Assembly: GCA_017380635.1 (NCBI GenBank)
Contig: JAFODP010000020.1
Span: forward strand, 886-64,885
Origin: Bacteroidales bacterium
GTDB taxonomy: Bacteria > Bacteroidota > Bacteroidia > Bacteroidales > UBA1402
Direction: 5' to 3'
Length of the DNA stretch: 64,000 nt
A program made the position numbers and the translations under genes. Below, one piece after another: positions 1 to 63,710 of this stretch (position 1 is its first letter; each line of letters begins with the position of its first letter). The notes under the pieces were generated by a model that was given only the letters and a program-made list of their open reading frames with translations, was not told where the DNA came from and ran no database searches.

Positions 1-81
1 TTTGCGGGGTTGTTCCACTACGACCTCGAAGCAGGTGCCAAACGAATTGCCCAACTCGAACAAGAATTAGAATCACTATGA
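1..81 (+). CDS. 3' end of an ORF entering from upstream (partial, function unknown)
   Basis: Frame 1 is open from base 1 (..FAGLFHYDLEAGAKRIAQLEQELESL) to TGA at 79-81. It is too short to assign. Confidence 0.25.
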   Translation, partial: FAGLFHYDLEAGAKRIAQLEQELESL

Positions 82-104
82 CTACTTTTGACAGAGTGAG
101 GTGG

Positions 105-112
105 TAGCTTTG
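105..112 (+). promoter_or_regulatory. Bacteroidota-type -7 promoter box TAgcTTTG
   Basis: TAGCTTTG matches TAnnTTTG and lies 23 nt upstream of the ATG at 135. Confidence 0.45.
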
Positions 113-134
113 TGAAAAATTAAATTATGCAGCT

Positions 135-1067
135 ATGATCTATTTAGAACAATTCAGGTTCATGACCTTAGGGAAAGAGGATCGTTTTTTGGCGGACTAC
201 TATCAAAGTCATCCTTGGGACAACGGGTCGCCATATCCCTTTGGCGTACTTTCCAAGCGCGGTTTGCACTCGCTTGATTTCTCCGAAATCACAATTCTGT
301 ATGGTGGCAACGGATCAGGCAAATCGACAGCTCTCAATCTGATTGGCTGTAAACTGAAAGCCGAACGAAGATCTGCTTACAACAAAGGCGATAGGCAGGC
401 GGATTATCTCGCACGCTGCACTTACAAAGAGGGGGTGTGGTATGATGATACCTCTCTGCAGGCCAAAACAACAATCATTACAAGTGATGACATATTCAAA
501 TATATGCTCGATACGCGTGGTAAAAACGAGTTTATATCGATGCAAAGCAACACTGTGCGTGCTGAGGTGGGGCGAATTAAAAGAGCCGCTTCCGACCCTC
601 GATATTACACTGCAAATGAGCGAGATGCTTTACACCACCTCGATTTCGAAACGGGTGAGAATGTTGATACTTTTTCTCGTGTCGTTGATATAAAGAAAAA
701 GAGTTGTGCGCAGTTTATCAAGGAGAACATAGGCGAAAAGACGCAGACCTACTCAAATGGAGAAACGGGTTTTATGAGTTTGGTGGAGAACATTGTTCCC
801 GACAGATTGTATATCCTCGATGAGCCCGAAAATAGTCTTTCCTGTAAATTGCAGCAAGAACTTGCTCGATTTATAGAATCGTCTGCAAAACATTGTGGTT
901 GTCAATTTATTATTGCTACTCACTCTCCATTTTTACTGGCTTTGCCAACGGCCAAGATTTATAATTTAGACGGAGAGCCAGCTACGGTCTCGAAGTTCTG
1001 GGAATTGCCTAATATGCAGTTGTATTATAAACTATTCCACCAGTTTGAGTCGGAATTTCATAAATAG
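135..1067 (+). CDS. soluble ABC-type AAA ATPase (SMC-head/AAA_21-like)
   Basis: Walker A GGNGSGKST, Walker B LYILDEPENSLS and an H-loop-like ATHSPF. 310 aa with no TM segments. Confidence 0.8.
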   Translation: MIYLEQFRFMTLGKEDRFLADYYQSHPWDNGSPYPFGVLSKRGLHSLDFSEITILYGGNGSGKSTALNLIGCKLKAERRSAYNKGDRQADYLARCTYKEGVWYDDTSLQAKTTIITSDDIFKYMLDTRGKNEFISMQSNTVRAEVGRIKRAASDPRYYTANERDALHHLDFETGENVDTFSRVVDIKKKSCAQFIKENIGEKTQTYSNGETGFMSLVENIVPDRLYILDEPENSLSCKLQQELARFIESSAKHCGCQFIIATHSPFLLALPTAKIYNLDGEPATVSKFWELPNMQLYYKLFHQFESEFHK

Positions 1068-1105
1068 GCTGTATGGTTCTGCCGCAATTTGTCAGTGTGG
1101 TGCGG

Positions 1106-1113
1106 TAGCTTTG
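1106..1113 (+). promoter_or_regulatory. Bacteroidota-type -7 promoter box TAgcTTTG
   Basis: TAGCTTTG lies 20 nt upstream of the ATG at 1133. Its sequence context resembles that of the box at 105-112. Confidence 0.45.
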
Positions 1114-1132
1114 CACTATAAAACTTTGGGTT

Positions 1133-1699
1133 ATGGATTTGGATAATATCAATGCTCTTTGTGAAGGAGGAGACATATACGCATCAAATGACGATTATGC
1201 GAATGCTATTCGCTGTTGGTCGTTGGCGGCAGAAGACAAGGCTGACCACGAAGGGAAATACCGATTAGGCATCTGTTACTATGAGGGTAAAGGGGTAGAA
1301 CAAGATATGTTTAGCGCAATCAGTTGGCTAAACAATGCCTCTCGGTCTGGAAGTTTTAAGGCTGCAAAAATGCTTGGCGGTTATTATGAAAACTTGGCTT
1401 ATAGTATTGTTGAACGAGAGGTTTCTGTGACCGATAACCAACTTGCCATATGGCATATTCCTCGTATTGAGAAAATAAAAATTCTTACATATCCAGAACA
1501 TCTCAATAACGCAATAGAATACTATTCTCAGTATCTTATAAATATAGACGCCTATGTTCATTGGGACAATCGGCAGGAAATTGGTTTCGATCTTAAAAAG
1601 AAATCGAGAAAAATTATTGATAGCGAAATCTCCAATGAATTAAAGATTGAAAAATTGAAACGGTTAATGAGGGCTTATGAGGGGTATGAAGATGTTTGA
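1133..1699 (+). CDS. Sel1/TPR-like repeat protein
   Basis: Sel1-type repeats (GKYRLGICYYEGKGVEQDMFSAISWLNNASRSGSFKAAKMLGGYY). Confidence 0.7.
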   Translation: MDLDNINALCEGGDIYASNDDYANAIRCWSLAAEDKADHEGKYRLGICYYEGKGVEQDMFSAISWLNNASRSGSFKAAKMLGGYYENLAYSIVEREVSVTDNQLAIWHIPRIEKIKILTYPEHLNNAIEYYSQYLINIDAYVHWDNRQEIGFDLKKKSRKIIDSEISNELKIEKLKRLMRAYEGYEDV

Positions 1700-2198
1700 T
1701 TGGAAACGGTGTTTCATATTGCAAAGCCGCAGAAAACTCGCTCGGTTATGGGCGGAGATTAGAGCCGCCTGGCGTGAGCTGACTGCCGAGGGACAACCTG
1801 CGAAGGTCTGCGAGAAGCCATATCGTTCAACCGATCCGACCACAAAGGTTGCCACGCAACTTAAATGGATGCTATTGAAAATCTACTGCCCGCAGGTCGC
1901 TTTCGAGTTGCGTGTTACTATGCAACGCCCCAAGAGTCGTATGGGCTACTATGTGCCGGCAAAGCGGAGTATAACGATTCACGGCGGCTGGGGCGATGTC
2001 CACTCGTTGGAGGAGATAGCGATCCACGAATACGCCCACCATATCCACTTTACGGAGCATCGTCGCAATGGCAAGAAGGACACGCCTCACGGACAGAACT
2101 TCTGGCGCATCTACTCAGCACTTATGGCAAAGGCGATAGAGAAGGGGCTTTACAACGATAAATATATTGATAAAATAATAGAGCAAGAAGATGAATAA
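1677..2198 (+). CDS. SprT-like zinc metallopeptidase domain protein
   Basis: HExxH motif in IAIHEYAHHIHF, preceded by a YYVPAKRSITIHGGW context typical of SprT/WLM-like proteins. Overlaps the upstream gene by 23 nt. Confidence 0.6.
   Translation: MRGMKMFDWKRCFILQSRRKLARLWAEIRAAWRELTAEGQPAKVCEKPYRSTDPTTKVATQLKWMLLKIYCPQVAFELRVTMQRPKSRMGYYVPAKRSITIHGGWGDVHSLEEIAIHEYAHHIHFTEHRRNGKKDTPHGQNFWRIYSALMAKAIEKGLYNDKYIDKIIEQEDE
2057..2198 (+). repeat. direct repeat copy A (3' end of the SprT-like gene)
   Basis: About 145 bp, roughly 90% identical by eye to 3393-3537 (cgcaatggcaagaagga...aataatagagcaagaagatgaa). Confidence 0.9.
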
Positions 2199-3138
2199 CG
2201 AAACTTTTGATTGGAACAGCCGCGACCCTCTCTTTGATGAGGTGGCGCATTATGTGGTTGAGCGACAGGCGGTGTCGGCATCGGCTATCAGTGATAAATT
2301 TTGCATCGGTTTTAACCGAGCAGAACGCATTATCAAGCAGTTGGAGCAGGCGTATATTATTGGCGAAAAGTGGAGTTCCCTCCATCCACGAGCAATCTAT
2401 GACTGTTGTTTTCGTAAACTCGATAAGAGATTGGCAGACTTAGCCACCATTGCGCGTCTGCAACCGTTGGAGGATAAGTGGCAGGCAGAAAGGGCTGAAT
2501 ATAAGGCAAAAGAGCAAGAAGAGGAGGGTGAGGAGTATTATTTCAAAATAGCCAATCACCGTCCACTCACAAAAGAGGTACGCGAAAGAGAGGAGGCTCG
2601 TGCTCGCTTTGAGGCAATGACCGAAGAGGAGCGACAAGTCGAAAGAGAGCGTCTTGATAAAGAATGGGAAGAGAAGGATAAAAATTGGGGTAAAGGGCCA
2701 GTCCACGGAATGGAGCGTGAGGATTGGAATGCCTATTGTGGTGCGCTCGATAGACAAAAATCCGATATGATTATGCGTGAACTGCCGTGGGGCGGTGATT
2801 ACGATTGGTCGGATATCTTCTTTATCCTGAAATTCAAAATCGAGCGAATGATTGAATATTGGGAGCAGTTTGGGCATTGTCGTAATGGACATTATATTGT
2901 AAGTACAATGCGTACTGCTTGTCGCCTGATAAATATAGTTCTAAAAAATGGCAACGAGAGTGGTGACTGCGAAAAATTCCCTTATCGGGTGAATCTGCGT
3001 AATGCCGATAGATTTAAAATTTTCCATGACCACAATGGCTATTATGACAAGGGCGATATGCAGAAAGTACGCTATAACAAAGCATACTGTATTTTGTTTA
3101 AGTTTTTGGAGTTTCATCTACATAATTGGTGGGATTAG
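2191..3138 (+). CDS. FtsK gamma-domain (winged-helix) protein with Glu-rich coiled coil and unknown C-terminal domain
   Basis: N-terminal DPLFDEVAHYVVERQAVSASAISDKFCIGFNRAERIIKQLEQAYIIG resembles the FtsK gamma consensus (DPLF..A..V......S.S.LQR...IGYNRAAR.ID.LE..GIVG). Confidence 0.65.
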   Translation: MNNETFDWNSRDPLFDEVAHYVVERQAVSASAISDKFCIGFNRAERIIKQLEQAYIIGEKWSSLHPRAIYDCCFRKLDKRLADLATIARLQPLEDKWQAERAEYKAKEQEEEGEEYYFKIANHRPLTKEVREREEARARFEAMTEEERQVERERLDKEWEEKDKNWGKGPVHGMEREDWNAYCGALDRQKSDMIMRELPWGGDYDWSDIFFILKFKIERMIEYWEQFGHCRNGHYIVSTMRTACRLINIVLKNGNESGDCEKFPYRVNLRNADRFKIFHDHNGYYDKGDMQKVRYNKAYCILFKFLEFHLHNWWD

Positions 3139-3537
3139 TTATGATTGAGAGCATTAGATTTCGTCTCGCCTTGCCCTTTAATGAGACGACAAAAGAGGAG
3201 TTTATTACTATAATTTGGAATGATGTAACCGACCGCTGGGGTGCAGATTTCACACCCGAGATAGGGGCGCGAATACAAATGGAGCTCGACACCTTCGAGC
3301 AAGTAGAGGGGTATATGGAGTATCTCTATTTCGTGTGGAGGGTGGTTTATGACAGCGGATACTATATTATGCCTTATCGTACTCTTGCCCACGTATCGGC
3401 GCAATGGCAAGAAGGATACTCCTCACGGACAGAACTTCTGGCGCATCTACTCGGCGCTTATGGCAAAGGCGATAGAGAAAGGACTTTACAATGACAACTA
3501 TATCAACAAAATAATAGAGCAAGAAGATGAAGAATAG
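3126..3537 (+). pseudogene. mosaic gene remnant: DnaE-like N-terminal fragment joined to a SprT-like C-terminal relic in a different frame
   Basis: The 122-aa ORF carries RIQMELDTFEQVEGYMEYLYFVW, paralogous to RIDHEIAVFKRCGYVEYLLGVV of the 4522 ORF (DnaE R.E.EL.VI..MGF.GYFLIV). From ~3393 another frame reads RRNGKKDTPHGQNFWRIYSALMAKAIEKGLYND.YI.KIIEQEDE, matching the C-terminus of the 1677 ORF. Confidence 0.6.
3393..3537 (+). repeat. direct repeat copy B
   Basis: See 2057-2198. Both copies end at the start codon of the next gene (ATGAATAAC versus ATGAAGAAT). Confidence 0.9.
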
Positions 3538-4522
3538 TGATTTTGATGAAGTAAGTTTTTTACGACGATTAGTAAGGGAGGCTTTTGAATCGGTTAAATT
3601 AATGCCAAGGGAAATAAAGACCATTAAAGCCCCAAGCTATTATGCGTTTGAGTTTCTACTCGACTATGAACGAGGGAAAACTATAAGTAGTGTACGATTT
3701 CACAAAGCAATGGATGAGTATTTGTTAATAGAACTCTATTCTTATCGAGGAGTTATATTGAGAGCTAAAAACGGAGAACCGAAGATTCGTGTGGAATCTT
3801 CCCGACAACACCCTGAGAGTATAAATATTGGTATAAAAACAATAATGCACTCGTATAAGGAGGAGTTGAAAGATATGTCATTGCCAATTGTCTTGGGTGT
3901 TGGCGATAATTATAAGCCTATGATTATCGATTTGGCGAATGTTGGACATATTCTTGTTGGGGGCGCAACATGCCAAGGAAAAACAAACCTGCTGCACGCC
4001 TTTGCGCAGTCTATATACTACTCGCCACGAAAGGTGTCAGAGGGGTGTTTTGTCTATTATATCGACCCCAAAGGCGTGGAAGGACCTCGTCCCTATTTCG
4101 ACTTTTATCTAACGACAATGGAGGAGATTCGTAAGGAGTTGGAGATGTTGTGCGACAAGATCGAAAAACGAATGAACGATACACAACTCTCACGCTATCC
4201 GATAATGGTATTGATTGATGACCTCGCTGATTTTGTAATAACAGATAAATATTTTATGGATATGCTTGTTCGTATTGCCCAGCGAGGTCATTGGGCTGGA
4301 GTCCATCTTGTGGTAACTTCAATTCCACTTAGCAGCCAGATGTTTCCTGGTATTTTGAAAGGAAATATCCCAACACGAATTTGTTTCCGTGTTGTGGATA
4401 AATATGAATCGAGGCTCGTACTCGATACTCCAGACGCAACACTGTTATCACAACAAGGTGAGATGTTTTTCTCGCACAACGGCAAATTAACAAGACTGCA
4501 AACAATTAAAACATTAGAATAA
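3527..4522 (+). CDS. FtsK/SpoIIIE-family DNA translocase motor (soluble, no TM or gamma domain)
   Basis: Walker A GGATCQGKTN, Walker B MVLIDDLADF, and HLVVTS...GNIPTRICFRV matching FtsK IHLVLATQRP..IKANIPTRIAF. Confidence 0.8.
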   Translation: MKNSDFDEVSFLRRLVREAFESVKLMPREIKTIKAPSYYAFEFLLDYERGKTISSVRFHKAMDEYLLIELYSYRGVILRAKNGEPKIRVESSRQHPESINIGIKTIMHSYKEELKDMSLPIVLGVGDNYKPMIIDLANVGHILVGGATCQGKTNLLHAFAQSIYYSPRKVSEGCFVYYIDPKGVEGPRPYFDFYLTTMEEIRKELEMLCDKIEKRMNDTQLSRYPIMVLIDDLADFVITDKYFMDMLVRIAQRGHWAGVHLVVTSIPLSSQMFPGILKGNIPTRICFRVVDKYESRLVLDTPDATLLSQQGEMFFSHNGKLTRLQTIKTLE

Positions 4523-5604
4523 TGAGCGAATATAAGATTAGCGTTCCACGACCGAAACTCCCCAAGAAATTTGCGAAATCACCGGCAAAGTATCTGCGTA
4601 AAAAGGTGATTGATGTTGTAGAAAACATGGGTATATTGACCACAGAAAACCGAGAAGAATATCTGCAACGCATCGACCACGAAATAGCGGTCTTTAAGCG
4701 ATGTGGCTATGTGGAGTATCTGCTTGGTGTGGTAGAGATAACCGAGCAAATGAATCTATTGGGGATATCATATATTGCGGGTCGAGGAGTCTTTTCTGCC
4801 TCGCTGGTCTTTTATTGCTTGCGAATTACGAACATTGACCCCATAAAATGCGACCTAATGTTCGCTCGATTTATGCCCGAGGATTGCCCAAAGTTTACCG
4901 AGGTGGAGCTGCTTATTGGTAAGATTTTGCGCCCATCTCATCTGCGAGATTTGGAGCAGGCAATTGCGAGTAATGAGAGCGAGGGGCATAGCGTAACGCT
5001 TGTAGCGTCAAACATCGCAGGACTGATCAGCAGAGCAAACTACGGGATTTGGGAGAACTGCGGATTGATGCTGTCCGACTTGTCTAATGGTTGCGCTTTG
5101 CGAATACCGCTCGACGATGCCGAGACTTATCGCTCGCTACGCTATGGCGACTTGACGGGAATCTATTGCCTAAATCGTAGAAGATTGGTTAATGAGATGT
5201 ATTTTAATCCGCCGATTTCGTTTGATGATTTGGTGCGTCTTTGCGCCATAAATAGACCAGGGGCATTTGAGATGTTTAACGAGAATGATTCACGATATTG
5301 TTTTCAAGAGGAGATTATGCGCGATGCGATGGCTTGCGGATTTAGCGAGGTAGAGGCTGATGATTTGCGCTGTTCGGTTGGCAGAAAACAGACCGAAAAG
5401 TTGGAGTTGTATCGTCCTCGCTGGGTGACAAAATATGGTGAAGCGAGTTGGCAAACGATGACAGAGTATGGATTGTACGCCTACCCCAAAGCCCACGCTG
5501 TAGTACTTGCCTACATCGCCTACGCAACCGCCTACCTTAAAACCCATTTTCCACAGGAATTTGCCCGAGCAGCATTGTGCGTGGCAGCGAGTGATGGGTA
5601 CTAA
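4522..5604 (+). CDS. shortened DNA polymerase III alpha (DnaE)-like protein, predicted catalytically inactive
   Basis: Collinear DnaE motifs: GRGVFSASLVFYCLRITNIDPIKCDLMFARFM, INRPGAF, LRCSVGRK, YPKAHAVVLAYIAYATAYLKTHFPQEF. Only 360 aa, with no PHP domain. The PDFDVDF site reads PKFTEVE. Confidence 0.7.
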   Translation: MSEYKISVPRPKLPKKFAKSPAKYLRKKVIDVVENMGILTTENREEYLQRIDHEIAVFKRCGYVEYLLGVVEITEQMNLLGISYIAGRGVFSASLVFYCLRITNIDPIKCDLMFARFMPEDCPKFTEVELLIGKILRPSHLRDLEQAIASNESEGHSVTLVASNIAGLISRANYGIWENCGLMLSDLSNGCALRIPLDDAETYRSLRYGDLTGIYCLNRRRLVNEMYFNPPISFDDLVRLCAINRPGAFEMFNENDSRYCFQEEIMRDAMACGFSEVEADDLRCSVGRKQTEKLELYRPRWVTKYGEASWQTMTEYGLYAYPKAHAVVLAYIAYATAYLKTHFPQEFARAALCVAASDGY

Positions 5605-5653
5605 TTCCGGCTACAAAATAGTCCGAATTATTACAAACTAATTCAAGACAAAA

Positions 5654-5694
5654 GTGGCGTATGTGGTGAACTGTGTAGTTCTCTCATACGCCAC
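5654..5694. terminator. 10-bp perfect-stem hairpin (gtggcgtatg / catacgccac), possibly a bidirectional terminator
   Basis: Stem arms at 5654-5663 and 5685-5694. A TTTTG run follows on the minus strand and a T-rich stretch on the plus strand. A second hairpin, gcatctt-tgg-aagatgc, lies at 5712-5728. Confidence 0.5.
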
Positions 5695-5886
5695 CTTGGT
5701 TTATTCACAATGCATCTTTGGAAGATGCTTGATTTCAGTGCTTTACTTTCTTACCTTTGTACTCGTAGTCTTTGGGTTTGATTACGATTTCCATGTAGTC
5801 TTCTATGTAGGATTTCGCAATTTTCGTAAAAACTAACACTGATAATCAATTAGTTAAAATAAAATAATGGTTGCCGAAAGTTTTCC

Positions 5887-6153
5887 TCACAAGGATTTAT
5901 CAACTGCTAAGCGACATAATTTCACGGCAGGGTAACTCTTAATTCTTTTTCTGTTGATAAATCGTTTGCGACGAAATCGATTGAAATCTGTAGGAGAACT
6001 GAAATCGTTTAAAGTGATTTTGTCGTTTGCTAAACTGAAATATCCGACAATTCTATTGCTGAGTTTGTGTTTCAATGTGTAGGTGATGGCAAGCATTTTT
6101 TTTTGCAACTTGCATATTTTGAATGTGTTGCTCAAATAGTCTCGGCTGAACAT
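5887..6153 (-). pseudogene. truncated GNAT acetyltransferase (TacT-like toxin family) remnant
   Basis: N-terminal two thirds of a GNAT (..IVGYFSLANDKI..YPAVKLCRLAVDKSL). It stops just before the Q/RxxGxG acetyl-CoA motif. The next codons read *GKLSATIILF*. Confidence 0.5.
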
Positions 6154-6218
6154 GTTGTATACGAACGAGAGATGATTATCCTGCTGAAAATGCTATTGAA
6201 AGTTCGTAAATGAAATAC

Positions 6219-6226
6219 TATCTTTG
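6219..6226 (+). promoter_or_regulatory. -7 promoter box TAtcTTTG
   Basis: A perfect TAnnTTTG 30 nt upstream of the ATG at 6256. Confidence 0.5.
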
Positions 6227-6255
6227 CGTGTTTGCCGTTATGTAGTTAAAAGCCT

Positions 6256-7164
6256 ATGTCATCGAGAATCATCGCATTGCCCAAGATTTTGGACGATAGG
6301 GGTAACCTTTCGTTCTTGGAGAATGGACATCAGATTCCGTTCGAAATCAAACGAGTACATTGGATTTACGATGTGCCCGGCGGGGAGTCGCGTGGCGCTG
6401 TGGCCTACAAGCAGACCGAAGAATTTATCGTGGCCATGTCGGGCAGTTTCGATGTTTGGGTGGACGACGGCCATACTTGCGAAAAATATCATCTGAATCG
6501 TTCTTACGAAGGCGTTTATGTGCCGCGCGGCACTTGGCGCAAGATCGACAATTTCTCGACGAATTCCTTGGCGGCCATTGCCACTTCAACGCTCTACGAC
6601 GAGCAGGATGCCATCCGCGATTACGACGAATTTGTGGCTTGGGTGGAGCAGTTGCCGAATCTGCAAAGTGCTGTGGATAAGAGTGATTTTTCTGAAGTGG
6701 GGCTCCCGATGCAAACCCCAGGCGGATCCGAAGTTCAGATTCCCGCTTTCAGCGTTCAGGATTGTGAAATCATCAATCTCGACCGACATCATTCGGCGCG
6801 CAAAGGCGATATTTGCGTGGTGGAAAATGCGCGCACGGTGCCTTTCGATATCAAGCGTTTGTATTATCTCTACGATGTGCCGGCCGATGCCGTGCGCGGA
6901 GGACATGCTCATAAACGCTTGTATCAGTTGTTGATAGCCGCCAGTGGATCCTTCACCGTTCGTTTAGACGATGGCAAAGAACAACGCAGTGTCAGTTTGA
7001 AGCGGCCTTATCAGGCGCTGCTTATCAAACCGGGTATTTGGCGCGAAGTGGACGATTTTTCTTCGGGTTCGGTTTGTATGGTGCTGGCCTCTGAGTTGTA
7101 CGACGAAAGCGATTATATCCGCAATTATCAAGCATTTATCGAATATAAACAGCGCGAATTATGA
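6256..7164 (+). CDS. tandem WxcM/FdtA-like cupin protein (dTDP-sugar 3,4-ketoisomerase family)
   Basis: Two FdtA-like cupin halves. The C-terminal half has the canonical VRGGHAHKRLYQLLIAASGSF. The N-terminal half reads SRGAVAYKQTEEFIVAMSGSF. Confidence 0.75.
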   Translation: MSSRIIALPKILDDRGNLSFLENGHQIPFEIKRVHWIYDVPGGESRGAVAYKQTEEFIVAMSGSFDVWVDDGHTCEKYHLNRSYEGVYVPRGTWRKIDNFSTNSLAAIATSTLYDEQDAIRDYDEFVAWVEQLPNLQSAVDKSDFSEVGLPMQTPGGSEVQIPAFSVQDCEIINLDRHHSARKGDICVVENARTVPFDIKRLYYLYDVPADAVRGGHAHKRLYQLLIAASGSFTVRLDDGKEQRSVSLKRPYQALLIKPGIWREVDDFSSGSVCMVLASELYDESDYIRNYQAFIEYKQREL

Positions 7165-55547: not shown

Positions 55548-55604
55548 GATATTTTATCGTATATTGCGGACCAATTAGAGAGATTTATGATTCTGTAAGA
55601 AATA

Positions 55605-56171
55605 ATGACTGACCAACAAATAATAGCGGCATTGGTGGAGCGAGATGAGAAAGTTACTCGGCAATTCTTTTTTAAGGATTGTCGTCCGCTTTTTGCTAGT
55701 ATCATTCGTCATGTGTTTACGTACAAGGTGGATTACGATGAGTTTGTGAATGAATTCTATCTTTATTTGATGGAAAACGAAGCTCATCGTCTGCGTCAAT
55801 TCCAGGGAAGAAGTTCTATCTATCAGTGGATGAAGGTGGTAGCTATTCGTTATTTTGTAGCTAAAAGGGATTCAATGATAGATATGGAACCTCGGGAACC
55901 TCTTTCCAATGAACCTGAAGCATCCTATGATAAATCGGGTGCCATATCAGCTGCTATCGATGTACGACGTTTGCTTGGCATGATGCCGAACAAGCGCCAT
56001 GTGTATGTTTTGCAGCGATTGCTCTTGGACGATGCGGAACCTAAAGAAGTGGCAGAAGAGTTGCAAGTGACAGTAGATAATTTGTATAACATAAAGAAAA
56101 GGGCTATGGCTGCGCTGACACAAATGGTGCTTTTCGAAACTGGGAAATATGAAAAAGAAATCTGTAAATAA
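55605..56171 (+). CDS. sigma-70 family (ECF-like) RNA polymerase sigma factor
   Basis: A region 2-like segment (EFYLYLMENEAHRLRQFQGRSSIYQWMKVVAIRYF) and a region 4 helix-turn-helix (EPKEVAEELQVTVDNLYNIKKRAMAAL). Confidence 0.7.
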   Translation: MTDQQIIAALVERDEKVTRQFFFKDCRPLFASIIRHVFTYKVDYDEFVNEFYLYLMENEAHRLRQFQGRSSIYQWMKVVAIRYFVAKRDSMIDMEPREPLSNEPEASYDKSGAISAAIDVRRLLGMMPNKRHVYVLQRLLLDDAEPKEVAEELQVTVDNLYNIKKRAMAALTQMVLFETGKYEKEICK

Positions 56172-57150
56172 GATCTCGTCGGAGGTATTGGCGGCTTTTC
56201 TCGATGGAAACGCCACTGCACAAGAAAGCCTGGAGATAATGTGCGAAATCTCTGAAGATGCTTCATTGAGAGAGTTGCTGCATATTTCTCAATTGGTAGA
56301 TGCGGAATTGGGTATCATGCCTCAAGTGGATTGTGAGCTTCTTCCCATGACGGCCATGGCTGCTACGTGCAGCGAAGAGAATCTCTGTAGTTTGGAATGC
56401 GAAAAATTTGTGCTAAGAAAGATGGGTATAGATTTCGACGAACAACAACTCTACGCTGAGGCGCTTCGCTGTGGATGGCAAAAAAAAGAAGGCACGGCTT
56501 TATACAATGTGGGACGCCATTTGGAAGCTAAAGGTCTTGTGGTGACTCGCCAATTTAAAGCGAGGATTGACGATATTGCAAATGCGCTCAAGAAAAATGA
56601 GAGCGTAATAGTTGCGCTTGATGGTGGAGAATTGTTGAATGCCGGATTGTCCGAAATCAGAGAAGACCTTATTGTAGGACAGATTCCCGACCATACGGTA
56701 GTTGTTACATCGTACGATGCTACCGCGCAAAAAATATGCGTATTCGATCCCAATTCTCCGGACGCGGAAGATACCTATCCTTTAGCTCAATTTCTGGATG
56801 CGTGGAGCGATTCTAAAAATTATTTGTTGCGTGTTGTTTCACCCGATACATGTGAATATATTCCACATCCTATCGATTTGTCTGATGTGGTTCTCACCGA
56901 AGATTTGATCGAATTGCGTGAAGCTATCGCCGAAAACGCTCACGAAGTTTGGGCGCAGAATCGTTATGCCGAAGGTTGGCGTTATGGTCCTCAAAGAGAT
57001 GACGATAAATTGCTTCATCCAGATATGATGCCCTATTCCCAACTTCCCGAAGGCGAAAAGGACTACGACCGCGAAATGGCTATGAAGACCATAAAACTTT
57101 TGAAGAAGCTCGGGTATGATCTTGTGAAACGTAAAAATAACAAACAATAG
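56149..57150 (+). CDS. anti-sigma-like N-terminus plus papain/C39-like peptidase-like domain plus C-terminal RyR domain
   Basis: LAAFLDGNATAQES is an anti-sigma-style N-terminus. A Cys...His module (CSLECEKFVL ... DHTVVVTSYD) is a tentative call. The C-terminus IAENAHEVWAQNRYAEGWRYGPQRDDDKLLHPDMMPYSQLPEGEKDYDREMAMKTIKLLKKLGY is a strong RyR-domain match. 23-nt overlap with the sigma gene. Confidence 0.6.
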   Translation: MKKKSVNKISSEVLAAFLDGNATAQESLEIMCEISEDASLRELLHISQLVDAELGIMPQVDCELLPMTAMAATCSEENLCSLECEKFVLRKMGIDFDEQQLYAEALRCGWQKKEGTALYNVGRHLEAKGLVVTRQFKARIDDIANALKKNESVIVALDGGELLNAGLSEIREDLIVGQIPDHTVVVTSYDATAQKICVFDPNSPDAEDTYPLAQFLDAWSDSKNYLLRVVSPDTCEYIPHPIDLSDVVLTEDLIELREAIAENAHEVWAQNRYAEGWRYGPQRDDDKLLHPDMMPYSQLPEGEKDYDREMAMKTIKLLKKLGYDLVKRKNNKQ

Positions 57151-57169
57151 ATTTAAGTTGATTCAGAAT

Positions 57170-58051
57170 ATGATTAAACCTTCAGAATTTATTCATCCTG
57201 AGGACGCAGCAGCATTGCGTCAGTTGGAATCTATTCCGGGATTTCCGATGCTGGTGAAGAAAATTATGGCCATCGGACTTGAACAATTGCAGTATGGTAT
57301 GAATATGGCGACGTCTATCAGGTTGTCGCCCACACAATTGCCAAAATTGTACAACCATCTCCCGCCCATTTGTGAAAAACTTGGTATAGAAGAACCGGAA
57401 TTCTATCTTATGATGGATCCCAATCCAAATGCTTTTACTTTTGGTGATACCAAAATATTTATTGCTGTTACATCTGGCTTGGTGGAAATGATGAGCGACG
57501 AAGAATTAGACGCCGTCCTTGCCCACGAATGCGGTCATATCATGTGTCGTCACGTATTGTATCATAGTATAGCGCGATATATTTTGAGCGGTGTAGATGC
57601 TCTTGGTGTTTTGGGCACACTGACTACACCTATTAAATGGGCTGTCTTATATTGGTATCGCAAGAGTGAGCTTTCGTGCGATCGCTGTGCCAGTATAGTT
57701 GCTTCTCCCGAAGTGGTGGCATCCACAATGGCTCGTTTGGCTGGGGGACCGAAGTCGATTACTGCTCACCTTAATATGGAAGAGTGGGCCAAACAAGCCG
57801 ATAAGTACGATGAAATTTACAACGATGGTTTGTGGAACAAGGCTTTACAAATCTATGTAATCATGGAACAATCCCATCCATTCAGCGCTGTGCGTGTACG
57901 CGAAATTCTGAAGTGGGGAAAGAGTGCTCAGTATCAACGTATCATGCAGGCTATGACCAAGGCCTTAGGTAGCAACGAATGTCCTAACTGTCATCGTTCA
58001 GTGTCATCTGATTGGGGATTCTGTAAATACTGTGGTCATAAACTGAAATAA
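57170..58051 (+). CDS. M48-family zinc metallopeptidase with C-terminal zinc ribbon
   Basis: HECGHIMCRH (HExxH) and a C-terminal CPNCHRSVSSDWGFCKYCGHKL. Start set at the ATG 12 nt inside the track ORF. Confidence 0.75.
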   Translation: MIKPSEFIHPEDAAALRQLESIPGFPMLVKKIMAIGLEQLQYGMNMATSIRLSPTQLPKLYNHLPPICEKLGIEEPEFYLMMDPNPNAFTFGDTKIFIAVTSGLVEMMSDEELDAVLAHECGHIMCRHVLYHSIARYILSGVDALGVLGTLTTPIKWAVLYWYRKSELSCDRCASIVASPEVVASTMARLAGGPKSITAHLNMEEWAKQADKYDEIYNDGLWNKALQIYVIMEQSHPFSAVRVREILKWGKSAQYQRIMQAMTKALGSNECPNCHRSVSSDWGFCKYCGHKLK

Positions 58052-58072
58052 TAAGCTATAAACTATTTGAAA

Positions 58073-58330
58073 ATGAAAGATTTATTCGACGAAAATGGAT
58101 TGTTGAACATCGATATTCTGATGGAACAAACTCCGTCATGGAAGTCTATCATAGCAGATGAGTTGGTGACAGATGAGGAGTTGAAGGAGCAATCTGAAAG
58201 AGTGATGCGCTTGGCAGAAAAACTTCAAGCCGCTTGTAATCAGGAGCAAATAGATTTGGTGAAGGCGTTTTTGGCTGAACTTAACGTGCTGAACATGGCT
58301 TATCATTACAATAGTGTAAAACCAATGTAA
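58073..58330 (+). CDS. small hypothetical helical protein
   Basis: An ORF tightly spaced within the cluster, with no recognisable domain. Confidence 0.4.
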   Translation: MKDLFDENGLLNIDILMEQTPSWKSIIADELVTDEELKEQSERVMRLAEKLQAACNQEQIDLVKAFLAELNVLNMAYHYNSVKPM

Positions 58331-58341
58331 AAGACATAGAT

Positions 58342-58869
58342 ATGGGAACTTTTAATACAAGTAAGATACTATATGTATCGCCTGCATATATTCCAGCCAT
58401 GGCCGAACGTTTGTGTAGAGACTTTCAAGCTGATGGGTACGATGTGGCTTCTGATAATTTGATGAGCGGTGGCATTGAGGTTTCCATCTCAAAAGGTGGT
58501 GTATTCAAATTGGCTTTGGGTATGAAAACCGCGCTGAAAATATCGTTGACACCTCGCGAAGAATCGGTCGTATTCGATGCCAGTGTCGGGATTTTTGGTA
58601 AGCAAATTATACCTGCATTATTGGCTTGGTATGTGGCATGGCCCGTGCTCTTGACGCAAGTATGGGGTTTGATAACCCAATCGAAGTTGGACGACAAGGC
58701 ACTTGCTATTGTTATGGATGTGGCTTCGTCTGGCGATATTTCCGTTGATGCCTCTACTTCTCCGATAGAGAAATCCGACACTACGGGTGAATATTGTTTC
58801 TGTACTCACTGTGGCCACAAAAATCTCATGACTGCAGATAAATGCTCCTCCTGTGGAAAAGACTTATAA
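58342..58869 (+). CDS. hypothetical protein with a TM segment and C-terminal zinc ribbon
   Basis: TM segment IIPALLAWYVAWPVLLTQVWGLI and a C-terminal CFCTHCGHKNLMTADKCSSCGKDL. Confidence 0.5.
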   Translation: MGTFNTSKILYVSPAYIPAMAERLCRDFQADGYDVASDNLMSGGIEVSISKGGVFKLALGMKTALKISLTPREESVVFDASVGIFGKQIIPALLAWYVAWPVLLTQVWGLITQSKLDDKALAIVMDVASSGDISVDASTSPIEKSDTTGEYCFCTHCGHKNLMTADKCSSCGKDL

Positions 58870-58962
58870 ACAATGATTAAAAGATGAATGAAGAGTTGTT
58901 TTTATTTATAAATAATAGAATAACATCTTTAGATATTGTTCTTAAACAATTTATTAAATTTT

Positions 58963-58995
58963 TTGATTAGTATATTTTCTTATACTAATTATCAA
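58963..58995. promoter_or_regulatory. inverted repeat (candidate operator) upstream of the SIR2-like/TIR gene
   Basis: ttgattagtata-ttttct-tatactaat(t)atcaa, ending 23 nt upstream of the ATG at 59018. Confidence 0.35.
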
Positions 58996-59017
58996 GTCTG
59001 TTGATATTTATATATGT

Positions 59018-60382
59018 ATGGCCAGTCATAATGAAATAAGCGAGCGTAATTGGGAGTTGTTACTTGAGGCAATCAATAATAAACGGGTTGTCCCTATTAT
59101 TGGTGACGATTTTTTCTATGTTATCGAAAATGAGCAAGAAATCAGTGTTAGAGAATTCTTAATTAAGAAACTTGCTTTAAGATTTAATGTAACAGATTCT
59201 TTTGTTGATTTTTCTTCTATCGCAGATGCGATAGAACTAGAAAATTTTATGAATCATAAAATACGTTTCATCAACTCCCAAACTGATATATATTATGAAA
59301 TCAATCAGATTCTCCAAACTGAAAAAATCTACGTAAGGGAATCATTGCATCAATTAATTGAGCTAAATAAATTTCCACTTATTCTTACAACCTCATTTAT
59401 TCCAGGTCTTGAAACTCTTTTATCTCAAAAGGGGCATGATTGTGTTTCACTATCATATGAGAAAGCTGCAGATTCAGACCTTACTCCTGCTGTAATGTGT
59501 GGAGATAAAACAATAATATACTACTTGTTTGGACGATGTGGAAAAATAAAAAGGTCATATATGGTAACAGAGGAAGATCTTCTTGAATATATACATTTAT
59601 GGCATGATACAGATGCAAGACCCCCTATACTTACAAAGCAATTAGCCAATAAATTTCTAATGGTTTTAGGTTGTAACTATCCAAATTGGTTATTTAAATT
59701 TTTCTGGCATTCTATTAGAAATTTTTCTTTAATTCCTAATTCTAATCATGGTGATAGAATTATGGAAATTATGCAAGCTATTGTTTCTGTCGATCAGGTG
59801 AAGGATGATGTTGACTTAGAAAGATTTCTGTCCAGAATACACACTTCCATATACAAAAGCAGTAATACGTTCATTCAAGAACTCATATGGCACTGGGGTA
59901 ATTATAAATCTAATATAGAAGAGATAAATCCTTTAGAAGAAAAAGAAGTATTCAACTCGAATGACGAATCAATAGATATATTTATTTCGTATGCAAGTGA
60001 AGATTTACCTATCGCCAATAGATTGGCTGATATGCTTAAGAATCTAGGCGCAAAAGTTTGGTTTGATAAACGTGAACTTGTTCTATCAGATAAATATGAA
60101 AGAGAAATTACTTCTGCTATAACAAAAGCCAAACGTTTTATGCCTGTACTTTCTAAAACAACGCTGATAGAGGAGCCTCGCTTTTTTAGAAAGGAGTGGG
60201 CAATCGCGCATCGTGTACTTGAGGACAGATTTGGATTACCATTTTTTGCTCCAATTACAATTGATGAATGTAACCCTAATGATGAACGTATTCCGAAGAC
60301 CTATCGAGATTGCCATATAATATCATTCCAAAGTGAAGACATTGAGTTGAAGTTGAAAAAGTTTATTAGATCAATTCGCTAA
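59018..60382 (+). CDS. SIR2-like (SIR2_2-type, catalytic residues substituted) domain fused to a C-terminal TIR domain
   Basis: Collinear with ThsA-type SIR2: VPIIGDDFF (GAGLS), LILTTSFIPGLE (TTNYD), IIYYLFGRCG..YMVTEEDLLEY (KMHGD...DDYEKY), FLMVLGCNYPNW (FVGFSFTDPN). TIR: IDIFISYASEDLPIANRLADMLKNLGAKVWFD...FFRKEWAIA. Confidence 0.75.
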   Translation: MASHNEISERNWELLLEAINNKRVVPIIGDDFFYVIENEQEISVREFLIKKLALRFNVTDSFVDFSSIADAIELENFMNHKIRFINSQTDIYYEINQILQTEKIYVRESLHQLIELNKFPLILTTSFIPGLETLLSQKGHDCVSLSYEKAADSDLTPAVMCGDKTIIYYLFGRCGKIKRSYMVTEEDLLEYIHLWHDTDARPPILTKQLANKFLMVLGCNYPNWLFKFFWHSIRNFSLIPNSNHGDRIMEIMQAIVSVDQVKDDVDLERFLSRIHTSIYKSSNTFIQELIWHWGNYKSNIEEINPLEEKEVFNSNDESIDIFISYASEDLPIANRLADMLKNLGAKVWFDKRELVLSDKYEREITSAITKAKRFMPVLSKTTLIEEPRFFRKEWAIAHRVLEDRFGLPFFAPITIDECNPNDERIPKTYRDCHIISFQSEDIELKLKKFIRSIR

Positions 60383-60386
60383 AAAG

Positions 60387-63300
60387 ATGCTGTTAAAAGA
60401 GAACAATCCCTGGTTAGGCTTAGAGTCATATTCAATCAATGATGCCTATAGATTTTATGGACGTGACAATGATATTGAGATTGTTAGTAATGCTATCTAT
60501 GATAATTTTATTACTACAATTTACGGTATATCGGGAGCAGGTAAAACATCTCTTCTTAATGCAGGTTTAACTCCTGCTTTAATTGAAAATAATTATCTGC
60601 CTATTAGGATACGCCTCAATCACAGTTCAGATAAGTCGTATAGCATGCAAGTTATTGATGCTATAACCGCTGCCGTAGATTCTGTTAATGGAGAAGTAGA
60701 ATATGATGGTACTATTTCTCTTGAACAGATTTGCGAAAATGAGAAACTTTGTTTTTTTTTGCATACTAGAGGTTTTTGGACAAAAGACAACTATTCCATC
60801 AGACCCGTAATCTTTATTGACCAATTTGAAGAGTTGTTTACACAGAACGATGATACATATAAGATATCTTCTTTCTTTGAAATGATAAATGCCATTCAAT
60901 ATGATACACCCCCTACTCAAACAAAGGAGCTGCTGGAAAACAGTTCGGGATATTTTGAGCTTAAATGCAATACTAGCAGAATAGTCTTTATCATAAGGGA
61001 AGATTTTCTTGCTCGTTTAGAAGATTATTCATACGGTATAGCAGTTTTAAGAAGAAATAGGATTGGTATAAAGCAAATGAATGGTCATCAGGCTTTAGAA
61101 GTTATTCTTAAACCCAGTCAAGGTCTCATTACACGAGAAGGCGCACTGAAGATTCTAAGCAAAGTTTCAGGTAAGGACGTAATTGATTCAGATCGTTCAT
61201 TAGGTAGGATTTCAATAGACACCTCAATTCTTTCGCTTTTTTGCTCTGAATTGTATCAAAGAGCTGTCGAAGAAAAAAGCGATATTATTACCACGAAGAT
61301 TATTGAGGAATTTGGCAGTAATATTATTGCTCACTTTTACTCAAAGAGTATGGCTCCAGTACCTCCTACTTTAGTAACATATTTAGAGAAACATCTATTA
61401 ACATCTAATGGCTATAGAAATTCTATCGCACTTGAAGATGTTGAGATACCCAAACTTACAAAAGAAGCACTTGCAAGTAATCTCACCCACCTCACAGAAA
61501 AACGTATTATAAGAATTGAAGAGACGAATGGAGTTGCACGTGTGGAATTTACTCATGATGTTTTATGCATGGTTGCTAAGCAACATAGAGATAATAAGAA
61601 ACAGAAGCAACTTAAGACGAAAGAACGAGCGGCCTCAATATTGCGATGTTTAGATTTTTCATTTATTCTATTGCTATGCTATATTTTCTTCTCTTCAGGT
61701 TCTGGGTGGTGGGGATATTATACAATTTCTTCACTTTTAAATCCAACCTCTATTGCAATAGGTTTTTTATTTGTATATACATTTTACGATAAATATAATA
61801 AACAAAACTGTCATTGGAAATTAATATCTTCTATATTTCTATCGCTTTTATTGGTTCCGCAAGATGTTTGGTTTAATTTTAATGATAGTGCTCTAAGACC
61901 AATTAATATTGCTACATTGATACTATGCTGTGCTTCAATTGTTATTAGTACATTTTCCTTTAACCCGTCCAAGCGTACGCAAAAAGGATTCTATTATCTT
62001 TTGCTAGCCACAAATTTCATGATGTTATTATTAAAATACCACATCTTTATAATTGGCTTATTAGCATTATTTTCATTCTTAATACTACTTCCATATAGAT
62101 TCACTTGTGAGAAAAAATCACGTATTTTATCAATAATAGCAACGGTATTACTATTGATATTGTATTTGGGATATGGTAGTGACTTAGGTTTATTTATTGC
62201 CATGTATCCACTTACAACCTTCTTCATAAAATTAAAAGATGGAAATTTATCATTAAAATCAGCACTTATATCTTGCCTAAAATTTGAAGTATATAATAAA
62301 AACAAAAGTCTTAGAGTGATACTTCTCATTGTTGGTATACTTTCTACATTTTCATATTGTTGGGCATATGGCAATTCATTAGCAGATAAAGAAATCATAG
62401 GGAGAATAATATCAGTTGTATTGATGTTTATTCTATTATTTAAATTTTGTCGTGAAATATCTACTAGTTTTAGAGAAATAACAGATCGCCATGATTGTTT
62501 GATACATAAAGGGGCATTAGGAATTTTGATTATTTCAACATGTATATTTTTATGCCAATATATACCATATGGAACCATCTTCATTTTATTTATTTGGTTT
62601 ATCATTTTGACTTCACTAATCGTTTTCGGGTCAAAATTAAGGATTGAAAATAAATGTCTATTTACTGCAATCATTATAGTTGTTATATCTTTAATTATTG
62701 CGCCATTGAATAGTATCGGATACAACATTTTCTCAAATATCAAATATGGTAAAACTCCTCAAAATATAATCCATGCCAATAGAGAATTTATCGTCATTAG
62801 AGATTTTCAAGGCAATTATGGTGTACGTGATAGATATAATATCATCGTACCTGTTAATTATTCCGAGATTCTGAGTGTTGAATTTTATAATATAGATGAT
62901 AATATAATAATTAGTAGAGGTTTAAGCTCATATAATTTAAATAACAATGTTAACGACAAATGGTTATATGTTTTTCCAACGTGGGTGCGTAGAATATTTA
63001 TCAATGGGCTTAACATAAGTAGTAAACAAAATGATATTGACAAAACACCCAATATTAGATTTTTATTAAAAAATAAAGACGGGGGTAATATAACATGGGA
63101 ATGCAATCAACATCTAAATATTCCAAATGTATGTACTTCTGTAATTAATCTATCATCGGAATCTTTATTTGTTGAAAATATATCAGGGGCATTAGATTAC
63201 TTCAAATCATTAGCAGAAGTAAAAGAGAATAATCCGATAATAGCAAAAAAAGTTATATTAAATTGTTTTAAGAAATATCTTTCTCAAGAATATCAATTTG

Positions 63301-63710
63301 ATTCTTTGCAAGAACTAGATGAGTTGTTAGAATCACAGAGTACTCTAACTCATAATACTGCAAATAATTTAAGATTGGCAATGAATAGGTCATATCAACT
63401 TTTACCATTTGTTGATGATACATCATTTGTTAAACTAACGTTGGATACATTGTGTCAATACACAAGACCGCAGAGCAATAAGTCATATGATATTTGGGAA
63501 CATTATAATAATATTTCTAGGTATTATTTATATGGAAAAATGTTTGATAAGGCAGAAGAATACGCAATAAAAGCTATTAAAACGGACTCGTTGTTAAAGC
63601 TCCCATATTTAAATATTATCGAGGCACACATAGCTAGAGGGAGGTATAGTGAAGCTGAGTTTTTATTTAACGAGTATAAAGATGATATGTTTTATCAAGG
63701 GAAAATATAG
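60387..63710 (+). CDS. STAND-type P-loop NTPase with an embedded polytopic membrane domain and C-terminal WG-like and TPR-like repeats
   Basis: NPWLGLESY..FYGRDNDIEIV...IYGISGAGKTSLLNAGLTPAL (Walker A) and RPVIFIDQFEELFT (Walker B) fit the STAND signature. About 12-14 hydrophobic helices span roughly aa 415-775. It ends at TAG 63708-63710, but the frame stays open beyond. Confidence 0.75.
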   Translation: MLLKENNPWLGLESYSINDAYRFYGRDNDIEIVSNAIYDNFITTIYGISGAGKTSLLNAGLTPALIENNYLPIRIRLNHSSDKSYSMQVIDAITAAVDSVNGEVEYDGTISLEQICENEKLCFFLHTRGFWTKDNYSIRPVIFIDQFEELFTQNDDTYKISSFFEMINAIQYDTPPTQTKELLENSSGYFELKCNTSRIVFIIREDFLARLEDYSYGIAVLRRNRIGIKQMNGHQALEVILKPSQGLITREGALKILSKVSGKDVIDSDRSLGRISIDTSILSLFCSELYQRAVEEKSDIITTKIIEEFGSNIIAHFYSKSMAPVPPTLVTYLEKHLLTSNGYRNSIALEDVEIPKLTKEALASNLTHLTEKRIIRIEETNGVARVEFTHDVLCMVAKQHRDNKKQKQLKTKERAASILRCLDFSFILLLCYIFFSSGSGWWGYYTISSLLNPTSIAIGFLFVYTFYDKYNKQNCHWKLISSIFLSLLLVPQDVWFNFNDSALRPINIATLILCCASIVISTFSFNPSKRTQKGFYYLLLATNFMMLLLKYHIFIIGLLALFSFLILLPYRFTCEKKSRILSIIATVLLLILYLGYGSDLGLFIAMYPLTTFFIKLKDGNLSLKSALISCLKFEVYNKNKSLRVILLIVGILSTFSYCWAYGNSLADKEIIGRIISVVLMFILLFKFCREISTSFREITDRHDCLIHKGALGILIISTCIFLCQYIPYGTIFILFIWFIILTSLIVFGSKLRIENKCLFTAIIIVVISLIIAPLNSIGYNIFSNIKYGKTPQNIIHANREFIVIRDFQGNYGVRDRYNIIVPVNYSEILSVEFYNIDDNIIISRGLSSYNLNNNVNDKWLYVFPTWVRRIFINGLNISSKQNDIDKTPNIRFLLKNKDGGNITWECNQHLNIPNVCTSVINLSSESLFVENISGALDYFKSLAEVKENNPIIAKKVILNCFKKYLSQEYQFDSLQELDELLESQSTLTHNTANNLRLAMNRSYQLLPFVDDTSFVKLTLDTLCQYTRPQSNKSYDIWEHYNNISRYYLYGKMFDKAEEYAIKAIKTDSLLKLPYLNIIEAHIARGRYSEAEFLFNEYKDDMFYQGKI

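Follow-up and report, generated by a model that had tools for sequence, protein, structure and literature searches.

Genes and features of the block

We analyzed a 64,000-nt stretch of Bacteroidales DNA (GenBank assembly GCA_017380635.1, contig JAFODP010000020.1, positions 886–64,885; hereafter, the window), and focused on a block of genes at its left end that belongs to a horizontally transferred island. An earlier note on this DNA had placed seven co-directional open reading frames (ORFs) at 135–5604. Our analysis recovered every one of them, on the plus strand at 135–1067, 1133–1699, 1677–2198, 2191–3138, 3126–3494, 3527–4522, and 4522–5604, together with the stop/start overlap TAATG (4520–4524) between the last two, which encode an FtsK-like protein and a shortened relative of the DNA polymerase III (Pol III) alpha subunit, here called mini-DnaE. 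The features of the region were as follows.

1–81, plus strand: 3′ end of u92, a conserved 92-amino-acid island gene; the translation ends ...FAGLFHYDLEAGAKRIAQLEQELESL and a stop
83–112, plus strand: promoter-like element TTTG-N14-TAGCTTTG of the Bacteroidetes −33/−7 type, 23 nt upstream of the ABC ATPase start
135–1067, plus strand: small, soluble ABC-type ATPase of the AAA_21/AAA_15 class, 310 amino acids (AAA_21, 3.5e-15; AAA_15, 1.4e-13; ABC_tran, 1.4e-8)
1088–1113, plus strand: second promoter-like element TTTG-N14-TAGCTTTG, 20 nt upstream of the Sel1 start
1133–1699, plus strand: Sel1-repeat protein, 188 amino acids (Pfam Sel1, 2.2e-6, 28.5 bits against a cut-off of 30.7; PHROG 8741, 1.7e-11)
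1677–2198, plus strand: SprT-like zincin with the motif HEYAH, 173 amino acids (Pfam, 5.5e-4, 20.2 bits against a cut-off of 25.6)
2191–3138, plus strand: FtsK-gamma winged-helix protein (gamma-315), 315 amino acids, with the gamma domain at residues 10–68 (Pfam FtsK_gamma, 1.6e-14)
3126–3526, plus strand: recombination scar with a chimeric ORF (3126/3141–3494), probably no real gene
3527–4522, plus strand: soluble protein with an FtsK/SpoIIIE-type RecA-like beta domain (FtsK-beta), 331 amino acids (Pfam FtsK_SpoIIIE, 2e-15)
4522–5604, plus strand: mini-DnaE, 360 amino acids, the N-terminal palm and a portion of the Pol III alpha fingers; hallmark gene that closes the islands of this family
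5605–5869, plus strand: conserved non-coding island tail, 265 nt, with two hairpins (5654–5728), promoter-like TACCTTTG at 5752, and a conserved ~110-nt 3′ segment
5887–6153, minus strand: acetyltransferase-like (GNAT) remnant, 88 amino acids (PHROG 1758 acetyltransferase, 2.5e-9, covering 40–110 of 184), outside the island

Profile searches agreed with all six domain assignments that had been made from the sequence, the Sel1 and SprT-like matches falling below their Pfam cut-offs, and none of the genes was a housekeeping copy. The GC content of the block (0.40–0.46) was lower than that of the core (about 0.47–0.51 across most of the window), as had also been proposed. The claim that all of the ORFs overlap or abut did not hold, because the ABC and Sel1 genes are separated by a 65-nt gap with a promoter-like motif inside. 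The Sel1 and SprT genes overlapped by 23 nt and the SprT and gamma-315 genes by 8 nt; a gap of 2 nt separated gamma-315 from the fifth ORF (with the start of the latter taken as 3141), and a gap of 32 nt separated the fifth ORF from FtsK-beta.

The elements upstream of the ABC and Sel1 genes are copies of one motif (direct-repeat family D4). On the plus strand of positions 1–6300, the sequence TAnnTTTG, which we take to be the Bacteroidetes −7 promoter element, occurred at five sites, all of them intergenic: 83 and 105 before the ABC gene, 1106 before the Sel1 gene, 5752 in the tail, and 6219 before FdtA. A similar motif precedes the backbone gene c7 in other islands. Because promoter-like motifs stand before both the ABC and the Sel1 genes, the block would comprise at least two transcription units, which the predicted promoters define as the ABC gene alone and the genes from Sel1 through mini-DnaE.

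The window starts within u92 and therefore begins inside the island; full-length u92 homologs were found in 11 of the 16 other islands, at 84–93% identity. An identical sequence on a 371-kb metagenome scaffold supplied the DNA upstream of the window. In order, and on the same strand, it carries a c7-like gene, c16, c4, a WYL/WCX regulator, a 153-amino-acid gene, DUF6140, a 139-amino-acid gene, Mrr_cat, PLDc_2 (PLD), a 252-amino-acid gamma-domain protein, a YgjP-like zincin, and u92. The WYL regulator lies 5.6 kb upstream of the window start. Host genes for fumarase and HflX lie to the left of the island, and FdtA, DegT, and polysaccharide genes lie to its right. Homology between islands starts about 680 nt after the fumarase gene and stops at about window position 5869; the island is thus ~13.7 kb long, and window positions 1 to about 5869 are its right-hand (3′) half. 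In L030 (7170–7848), the 650-nt spacer between fumarase and the island contained a GC-rich repeat, in two ~190-nt copies and in partial ones.

Gene order is fixed and gene membership is mosaic

We compared this island with its relatives in a set of 17 distinct islands, mostly from metagenome-assembled genomes. Gene order was constant across all 17, so that the neighborhood is syntenic as far as order goes, but its membership was variable. The PLD gene was present in 9 islands, u92 in 12, YgjP in 5, ABC in 3, Sel1 in 4, SprT in 8, full-length gamma-315 in 2, and FtsK-beta in 8, and all seven ORFs occurred together in one island only, that of this genome. Every gene pair was found uncoupled among the islands. 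For example, the ABC gene occurred without Sel1 in L107, and Sel1 without ABC in L020 and L021; four islands had SprT but no FtsK-beta, and four had FtsK-beta but no SprT. The earlier note had described a single compact operon forming one dedicated system; the independent presence of the genes, the two or more promoters, and the scar ORF do not bear this out.

The usual arrangement in the relatives was FtsK-beta, followed by a small gamma gene (64–86 amino acids), followed by mini-DnaE. In 13 of 15 islands the small gamma gene overlapped the mini-DnaE start by 14–20 nt in another frame. The window has no such small gene, and carries the 315-amino-acid gamma-domain protein further upstream. In one metagenome-assembled genome (L021, 9812–11080), a 4-nt deletion at the mini-DnaE start created an in-frame gamma/mini-DnaE ORF of 422 amino acids, which could reflect a true fusion or an artifact of assembly. 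The smallest island observed, of ~4.3 kb (L018, 6770–11110), contained only c4, WYL, a PDDEXK_4 nuclease, the small gamma gene, and mini-DnaE, and it adjoined a type I methyltransferase-like gene (identified by eye) and another unannotated gene. Partial copies of c7 lay just past mini-DnaE in L023 (11164–11826, inverted) and at the left contig end of L015 (16–672), which suggests adjacent or tandem islands.

There were 16 mini-DnaE loci among 185,579 species genomes, and homologs of the WYL regulator were far more numerous (1116 at E below 1e-30). All genes were under purifying selection, with ratios of nonsynonymous to synonymous substitution (dN/dS) of 0.09–0.29, by which we rejected pseudogene decay. 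By gene, the values were 0.13 for ABC, 0.14 for Sel1, about 0.10 for SprT, 0.16–0.29 for FtsK-beta, and 0.12–0.22 for mini-DnaE.

The fifth ORF is a recombination scar

The fifth ORF formed no homolog cluster among the compared islands (c46, n = 1). A 153-nt direct repeat, 87% identical, links positions 2059–2211 and 3395–3547. Its first copy consists of the SprT 3′ end and the start of the next gene, and the 3′ half of the fifth ORF is the SprT 3′ end copied and read out of frame. An alignment located the ~140-nt SprT 3′ end in three settings: closing the intact SprT gene, as a remnant before FtsK-beta (both in the window and in L014, a related island), and at the junction of L023 where intact SprT meets the FtsK-like gene. 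The gamma-315 and FtsK-beta genes share their start, with the ATG lying within ...GAAGATGAA... of the SprT 3′-end segment. Because the fifth ORF is chimeric and reads a SprT remnant out of frame, we concluded that the block consists of six real genes and a scar. The conserved gene junctions are crossover points for homologous recombination, and the locus illustrates how modules are shuffled at them, the scar being one such event. We also considered ORF 3126–3494 as the remnant of a second mini-DnaE, and rejected this because its similarity to DnaE was marginal (E 0.035–0.05).

Horizontal transfer and defense context

The mini-DnaE, WYL, u92, and PLD proteins were 82–93% identical between two hosts whose RodA and PBP2 proteins were 35% and 49% identical, respectively. 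This disparity indicated that the island moves horizontally. Its flanks differed by host, and included AmiA/GcvP/MreB, PBP2, pyrophosphatase/tRNA-Cys/IF2, NusA, and others. A Bacteroidetes-type tyrosine integrase (Arm-DNA-bind_5, SAM_5, Phage_integrase) abutted the backbone in two islands only, and some islands carried a PIF1 helicase or a DnaA-like ATPase on the left. The earlier note had allowed that the block might sit inside a recognizable prophage or integrative and conjugative element, and this did not prove to be so: no capsid, packaging, conjugation, relaxase, origin of transfer, or replication initiator was recognized among the island genes. A scan of IMG/VR with mini-DnaE returned no match, and a blastn search of positions 1–5800 against phage and plasmid collections returned only one match, of 239 nt, to an AAA ATPase. 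An Xer-dependent element at dif, activated by the gamma domain, was rejected because GC skew was positive on both sides and the insertion sites differed; since the skew keeps its sign across the island, the island is not at the terminus.

The slot after the WYL regulator was hypervariable and contained GmrSD-family, Mrr_cat, or PDDEXK_4 genes. Five GmrSD-family proteins occurred in three islands, with one more in the L107–L112 island, and the Mrr_cat gene in the slot of the present island matched the PADLOC candidate system PDC-S02. The island therefore has the form of a co-directional defense gene array headed by a WYL regulator. In suggesting either a DNA-targeting conflict system or a mobile-element module, the earlier note had pointed in the right direction; the block lies on a horizontally transferred island with a WYL regulator and type IV restriction genes at its head.

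The FtsK-beta and gamma proteins

The FtsK-beta protein matched Pseudomonas aeruginosa FtsK (2IUU; 1.1e-21) over chain residues 183–445, and carried the Walker A sequence GGATCQGKTN and the Walker B sequence LIDD that had been read from it earlier. In an alignment of 121 sequences (the window protein and 120 homologs), the Walker A pattern GxxxQGKTN and a PTR arginine finger were conserved, and Walker B was LIDD in most sequences and LIDE in 14. The conserved Walker A and arginine finger suggest that the protein is probably an active NTPase. The copy in the window has a 100-amino-acid N-terminal extension without a match; the common form in relatives is 234–242 amino acids long and consists of the beta domain only. 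An AlphaFold2 model built with 40 homologs had a mean confidence (pLDDT) of 55.5, with the N-terminal 100 residues below 50.

Beyond its gamma domain, gamma-315 contains a charged stretch that resembles a coiled coil and, after it, a C-terminal domain. The protein aligned with the E. coli FtsK gamma domain (2J5P, residues 11–62; 3.9e-8). The C-terminal domain had no Pfam hit, and the possibility that it is a degenerate FtsK beta domain was rejected (hhalign probability 2.8%).

Compared with FtsK/SpoIIIE (2IUU, 2IUS, 2J5P), the two proteins retain a RecA-like beta domain with Walker A and arginine finger, and a gamma domain with the recognition-helix motif GFNRAxRII. They differ in that the gamma domain is a separate gene, Walker B is mostly DD rather than DE, and the FtsK-beta gene is optional in the islands. 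Moreover, the FtsK-beta protein has no hydrophobic N-terminus or linker, no alpha domain (its alignment starts at chain residue 183), and no fused gamma; because it lacks the anchor, the alpha domain, and the gamma domain, it is not an FtsK orthologue.

The mini-DnaE

Mini-DnaE matched Pfam DNA_pol3_alpha (6.3e-18, profile positions 2–97 of 260), the finger domain (2.5e-11), and TIGR00594 (9.7e-40). It starts at about position 277 of the TIGR00594 model and had no PHP hit. Alignment with Taq Pol III alpha (2HPI) was confined to residues 380–457, 647–716, and 741–850, where the protein ends. Like DnaE (Taq 2HPI, E. coli 2HNH), it has the N-terminal palm motif GRGxxxxSLVxYxLxITxIDP and finger helices; it differs in being 360 rather than about 1160 amino acids long, and in having no PHP domain, full fingers, clamp-binding motif, OB fold, or tau-binding C-terminus. 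Relative to eight full-length DnaE proteins, it also lacks ~120 residues that include the thumb and the HAAGVVI strand. Presumably, none of the known regions of E. coli DnaE that contact epsilon, beta, or tau has been retained.

The catalytic residues have changed as well. The third catalytic Asp (K-x-D-x-LGL) is replaced by Thr159. The DxD position reads T-E-V-E, in which E127 and E129 fall on both Asp residues in one alignment and are offset by one residue in another, and the second Glu is gone in a relative of 60% identity. These motif states make polymerase activity of mini-DnaE very unlikely. That is, the protein appears to be a conserved, non-catalytic derivative of a replicative polymerase that has been kept under purifying selection.

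A search with mini-DnaE returned 270 proteins; the 120 that were listed were 359–366 amino acids long and 81–98% identical, and the named homologs among them were "hypothetical protein" entries from Alistipes, Rikenellaceae, Paludibacteraceae, and Bacteroidales. Clustering at 50% over 1.84 billion proteins yielded only a handful of short relatives, and a scan of JGI metagenomes added few islands, most of its matches being true dnaE at about 25% identity. Mini-DnaE was the last gene before host genes, which vary between genomes. An AlphaFold2 model built with 15 close homologs was unusable (pLDDT 41.6). Full-text literature searches found no description of mini-DnaE.

The ABC ATPase, Sel1, and SprT-like proteins

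The best PADLOC matches of the ABC ATPase were AriA, mad3, NsnB, and PtuA, and its NCBIfam scores were far below the family cut-offs. It is thus similar in its AAA_21/AAA_15 class to PARIS AriA, Septu PtuA, Gabija GajA, Menshen NsnB, and MADS mad3. In contrast to PARIS, Septu, and Gabija-type systems, it has no Toprim, HNH, or other nuclease partner; its neighbors are u92 and Sel1 or, in L107, SprT.

Relatives of the SprT-like protein were about 159–169 amino acids long. The gene directly upstream of the 60%-identical mini-DnaE encodes a protein with the same weak SprT-like match. With SprT/Spartan/Wss1 and ArdC, the protein shares an HExxH zincin motif and weak similarity to the SprT-like profile. 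It differs from them in that this similarity is below the Pfam threshold, and neither the N-terminal single-stranded DNA-binding domain of ArdC nor the zinc ribbon of SprT was recognized.

The island tail and flanking features

The two hairpins of the tail, which had been noticed before, were stable in our folding analysis (z-score −3.49; 0 of 200 shuffled sequences folded as well). They were kept in 8 islands, with the loops conserved too and only one compensatory pair. The conserved ~110-nt 3′ segment ends ...AGTTAAAATAAAATAA, and the last ~40 nt of the tail were common even to L107–L112, islands that end in the FtsK-like gene without mini-DnaE. Rfam returned no match for window positions 1–6400, tail included. 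A small minus-strand ORF in the tail was rejected because its start codon was not conserved in the alignment with L014. The tail may combine a terminator with a recombination site, or may encode a small RNA.

The acetyltransferase-like remnant, which the earlier note had recognized as a truncated GNAT gene, begins 18 nt past the island end and has no C-terminal half. No antitoxin-sized ORF adjoined it, and no homolog was present beside any other island compared. Further along, positions 55600–64000 of the window hold a low-GC (0.27–0.44) co-directional plus-strand cluster outside this island. It encodes two peptidases, one C39-like with a RyR domain and one of the M48 type with a zinc ribbon, together with a zinc-ribbon protein, a SIR2-TIR protein (454 amino acids), and an nSTAND1 NTPase (1107 amino acids), and looks like a second, unrelated conflict or defense island.

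Interpretation of the block

We consider it likely that the block is a set of accessory, DNA-directed conflict modules carried by a new, horizontally transferred family of Bacteroidales defense islands, and that it is a mosaic rather than one system. The hosts of the family are gut Bacteroidales, mainly Rikenellaceae and Alistipes. Its fixed gene order runs from c7 and c4 to a BrxR-like WYL regulator, a variable slot for type IV restriction or other nuclease genes (occupied by Mrr in this island and by GmrSD or PDDEXK_4 in others), a PLD nuclease, the gamma-domain proteins with the YgjP zincins, u92, the optional ABC, Sel1, SprT, FtsK-beta, and small gamma genes, mini-DnaE, and the 265-nt tail. 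The seven ORFs represent several small modules that assort independently and, judging from the biology of their domains, would have defense or counter-defense functions on DNA. The gamma winged helix would bind DNA and position the FtsK-beta ATPase ring, the SprT zincin would cleave DNA-bound proteins, and the ABC ATPase may serve as a nucleotide-dependent sensor or clamp. A non-polymerizing mini-DnaE could act with the gamma protein as a scaffold or decoy that binds DNA, primer ends, or nucleotides. If mini-DnaE does act as a sensor, a decoy, or a mobility factor, the Pol III alpha fold would have acquired a new use.

Several observations weigh against this interpretation. No known defense-system model covers the genes of the block: PADLOC gave generic ATPase matches (mad3, 1.1e-15; mad8, 8.1e-20), with mad8 and SspH for FtsK-beta, and nothing for the Sel1, SprT, gamma, or mini-DnaE proteins. 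The island in this genome carries no integrase. Direct repeats flanking the island were absent at 11 nt or longer in L016 and at 9 nt or longer in L023, and in this genome only chance-level 9-mers were found, such as the 9-nt AAATAAAAT near both ends. A search for an empty site through the exact FdtA protein found none, as every contig either carries the island or breaks there. Since integrase, repeats, and empty site are all missing here, the mobility of this copy follows from comparison alone. Furthermore, 15 of the 17 islands were collected by way of mini-DnaE, which biases its apparent universality in what is a small sample, and the two islands found through other genes (L099 and L107) had no intact mini-DnaE. 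Differential loss from a single ancestral system of many genes would likewise be compatible with a fixed order in which some genes are optional.

We weighed this interpretation against other explanations of the same genes. That all seven form one dedicated anti-phage or anti-plasmid system that works only as a whole, with ABC and Sel1 sensing, a split FtsK tracking DNA, and SprT and mini-DnaE as effectors, would suit the tight co-directional packing with its overlapping stops and starts, the defense-island setting, the conserved order, and the resemblance of ABC to AriA, PtuA, and mad3 and of FtsK-beta to mad8 and SspH. We nonetheless judge it highly improbable, given that the full set occurs in a single island, that each gene is found without the others, that the ABC gene has its own promoter-like element, and that one ORF is a scar. 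As for MADS itself, the island contains no methyltransferase, and the NCBIfam MADS3 score was 28.6 bits against a cut-off of 420. A narrower proposal joins only SprT, FtsK-beta, gamma, and the non-catalytic mini-DnaE into an undescribed machine for DNA-tracking surveillance. Its dead polymerase core would recognize primer ends or replication forks, or decoy phage factors that target the host Pol III, while gamma would give sequence-polar recognition of self DNA and the ATPase and protease would strip or degrade foreign replication proteins bound to DNA. We regard this machine as improbable; if real, it would parallel, in bacteria, the protease-plus-segregase action seen at replication forks, and its carrier would be a new class of mobile island in Bacteroidales with a Pol III alpha relic as the marker.

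The same four genes might instead serve the island's own transfer, replication, or maintenance. TraB, an FtsK-like protein, pumps double-stranded DNA of actinomycete integrative elements, and its winged helix recognizes 8-bp repeats. By analogy, the position of gamma and mini-DnaE at the terminus beside a conserved, structured tail would be consistent with such a role, as would their standing as the most constant genes besides WYL, retained even in the minimal L018 island, and the PIF1 helicase or DnaA-like ATPase of some islands. However, only 8 of the 17 islands carry FtsK-beta, a protein with no membrane segment, mini-DnaE is without the third catalytic Asp, thumb, and PHP domain, L099 and L107 persist with no intact copy of it, and the search for a relaxase, an origin of transfer, or a replication initiator recognized none; we therefore think this explanation unlikely. 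The genes from PLD to mini-DnaE could also be counter-defense or establishment genes that shield the island, or a helper element, on entering a new cell. Leading regions of conjugative plasmids contain anti-restriction arrays that include SprT/ArdC-type zincins, and the present array is likewise compact, co-directional, and made up of small genes, with two zincins (YgjP-like and SprT-like). PHROG phage families match its gamma, FtsK-like, and Sel1 proteins, and the island moves between distant hosts. Yet no ArdC N-terminal domain and no known anti-defense family was matched, phage and plasmid collections held no DNA match apart from the single AAA ATPase segment, and the genes lie downstream of WYL and restriction genes, which suits defense better. 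This explanation seems to us highly improbable, and accessory conflict modules on a mosaic defense island remain our preferred interpretation.

Comparison with known systems

The element belongs to a known kind of mobile island, in which a conserved frame carries variable defense cargo, other examples being BrxR islands, pipolins, GMT islands, and satellite hotspots. We found no description of this particular frame, with its Pol III alpha relic, in the searchable literature. Defense islands and their carriers are well mapped in Proteobacteria and Firmicutes and poorly mapped in gut Bacteroidales, where the framework (WYL head, type IV restriction slot, gamma and mini-DnaE tail) could be used to harvest cargo genes from Rikenellaceae, Alistipes, and Muribaculaceae metagenomes.

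BrxR-family WYL regulators head defense islands, including one with the GmrSD enzyme BrxU (PMC9122601, PMC8565348). Like the BrxR-regulated pEFER island with BREX and BrxU, the present island has a WYL regulator at the head of a co-directional array, with GmrSD as the first cargo in relatives and Mrr here. It differs in having no BREX, and in its fixed-order zincins, gamma proteins, FtsK-beta, and mini-DnaE, none of which is linked to BrxR in described systems.

The P4/P2 hotspots are mobile islands that combine hallmark genes with variable defense cargo. Pipolins are marked by an active, primer-independent PolB (PMC11551731), and the trio of the GMT islands comprises two tyrosine recombinases and a StbA-like protein (bioRxiv 10.1101/2023.03.28.534373). 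We rejected identity with a GMT island because that trio includes no FtsK gamma. In contrast to pipolins and GMT islands, the hallmark genes here are unrelated and most copies have no adjacent integrase. As in pipolins, a polymerase gene is the marker, although here it is a relic derived from Pol III alpha and probably inactive. With pipolins, GMT islands, and P4/P2 hotspots alike, the present family shares a small framework, a variable slot rich in defense genes, transfer between distant hosts, and, in some copies, a tyrosine integrase.

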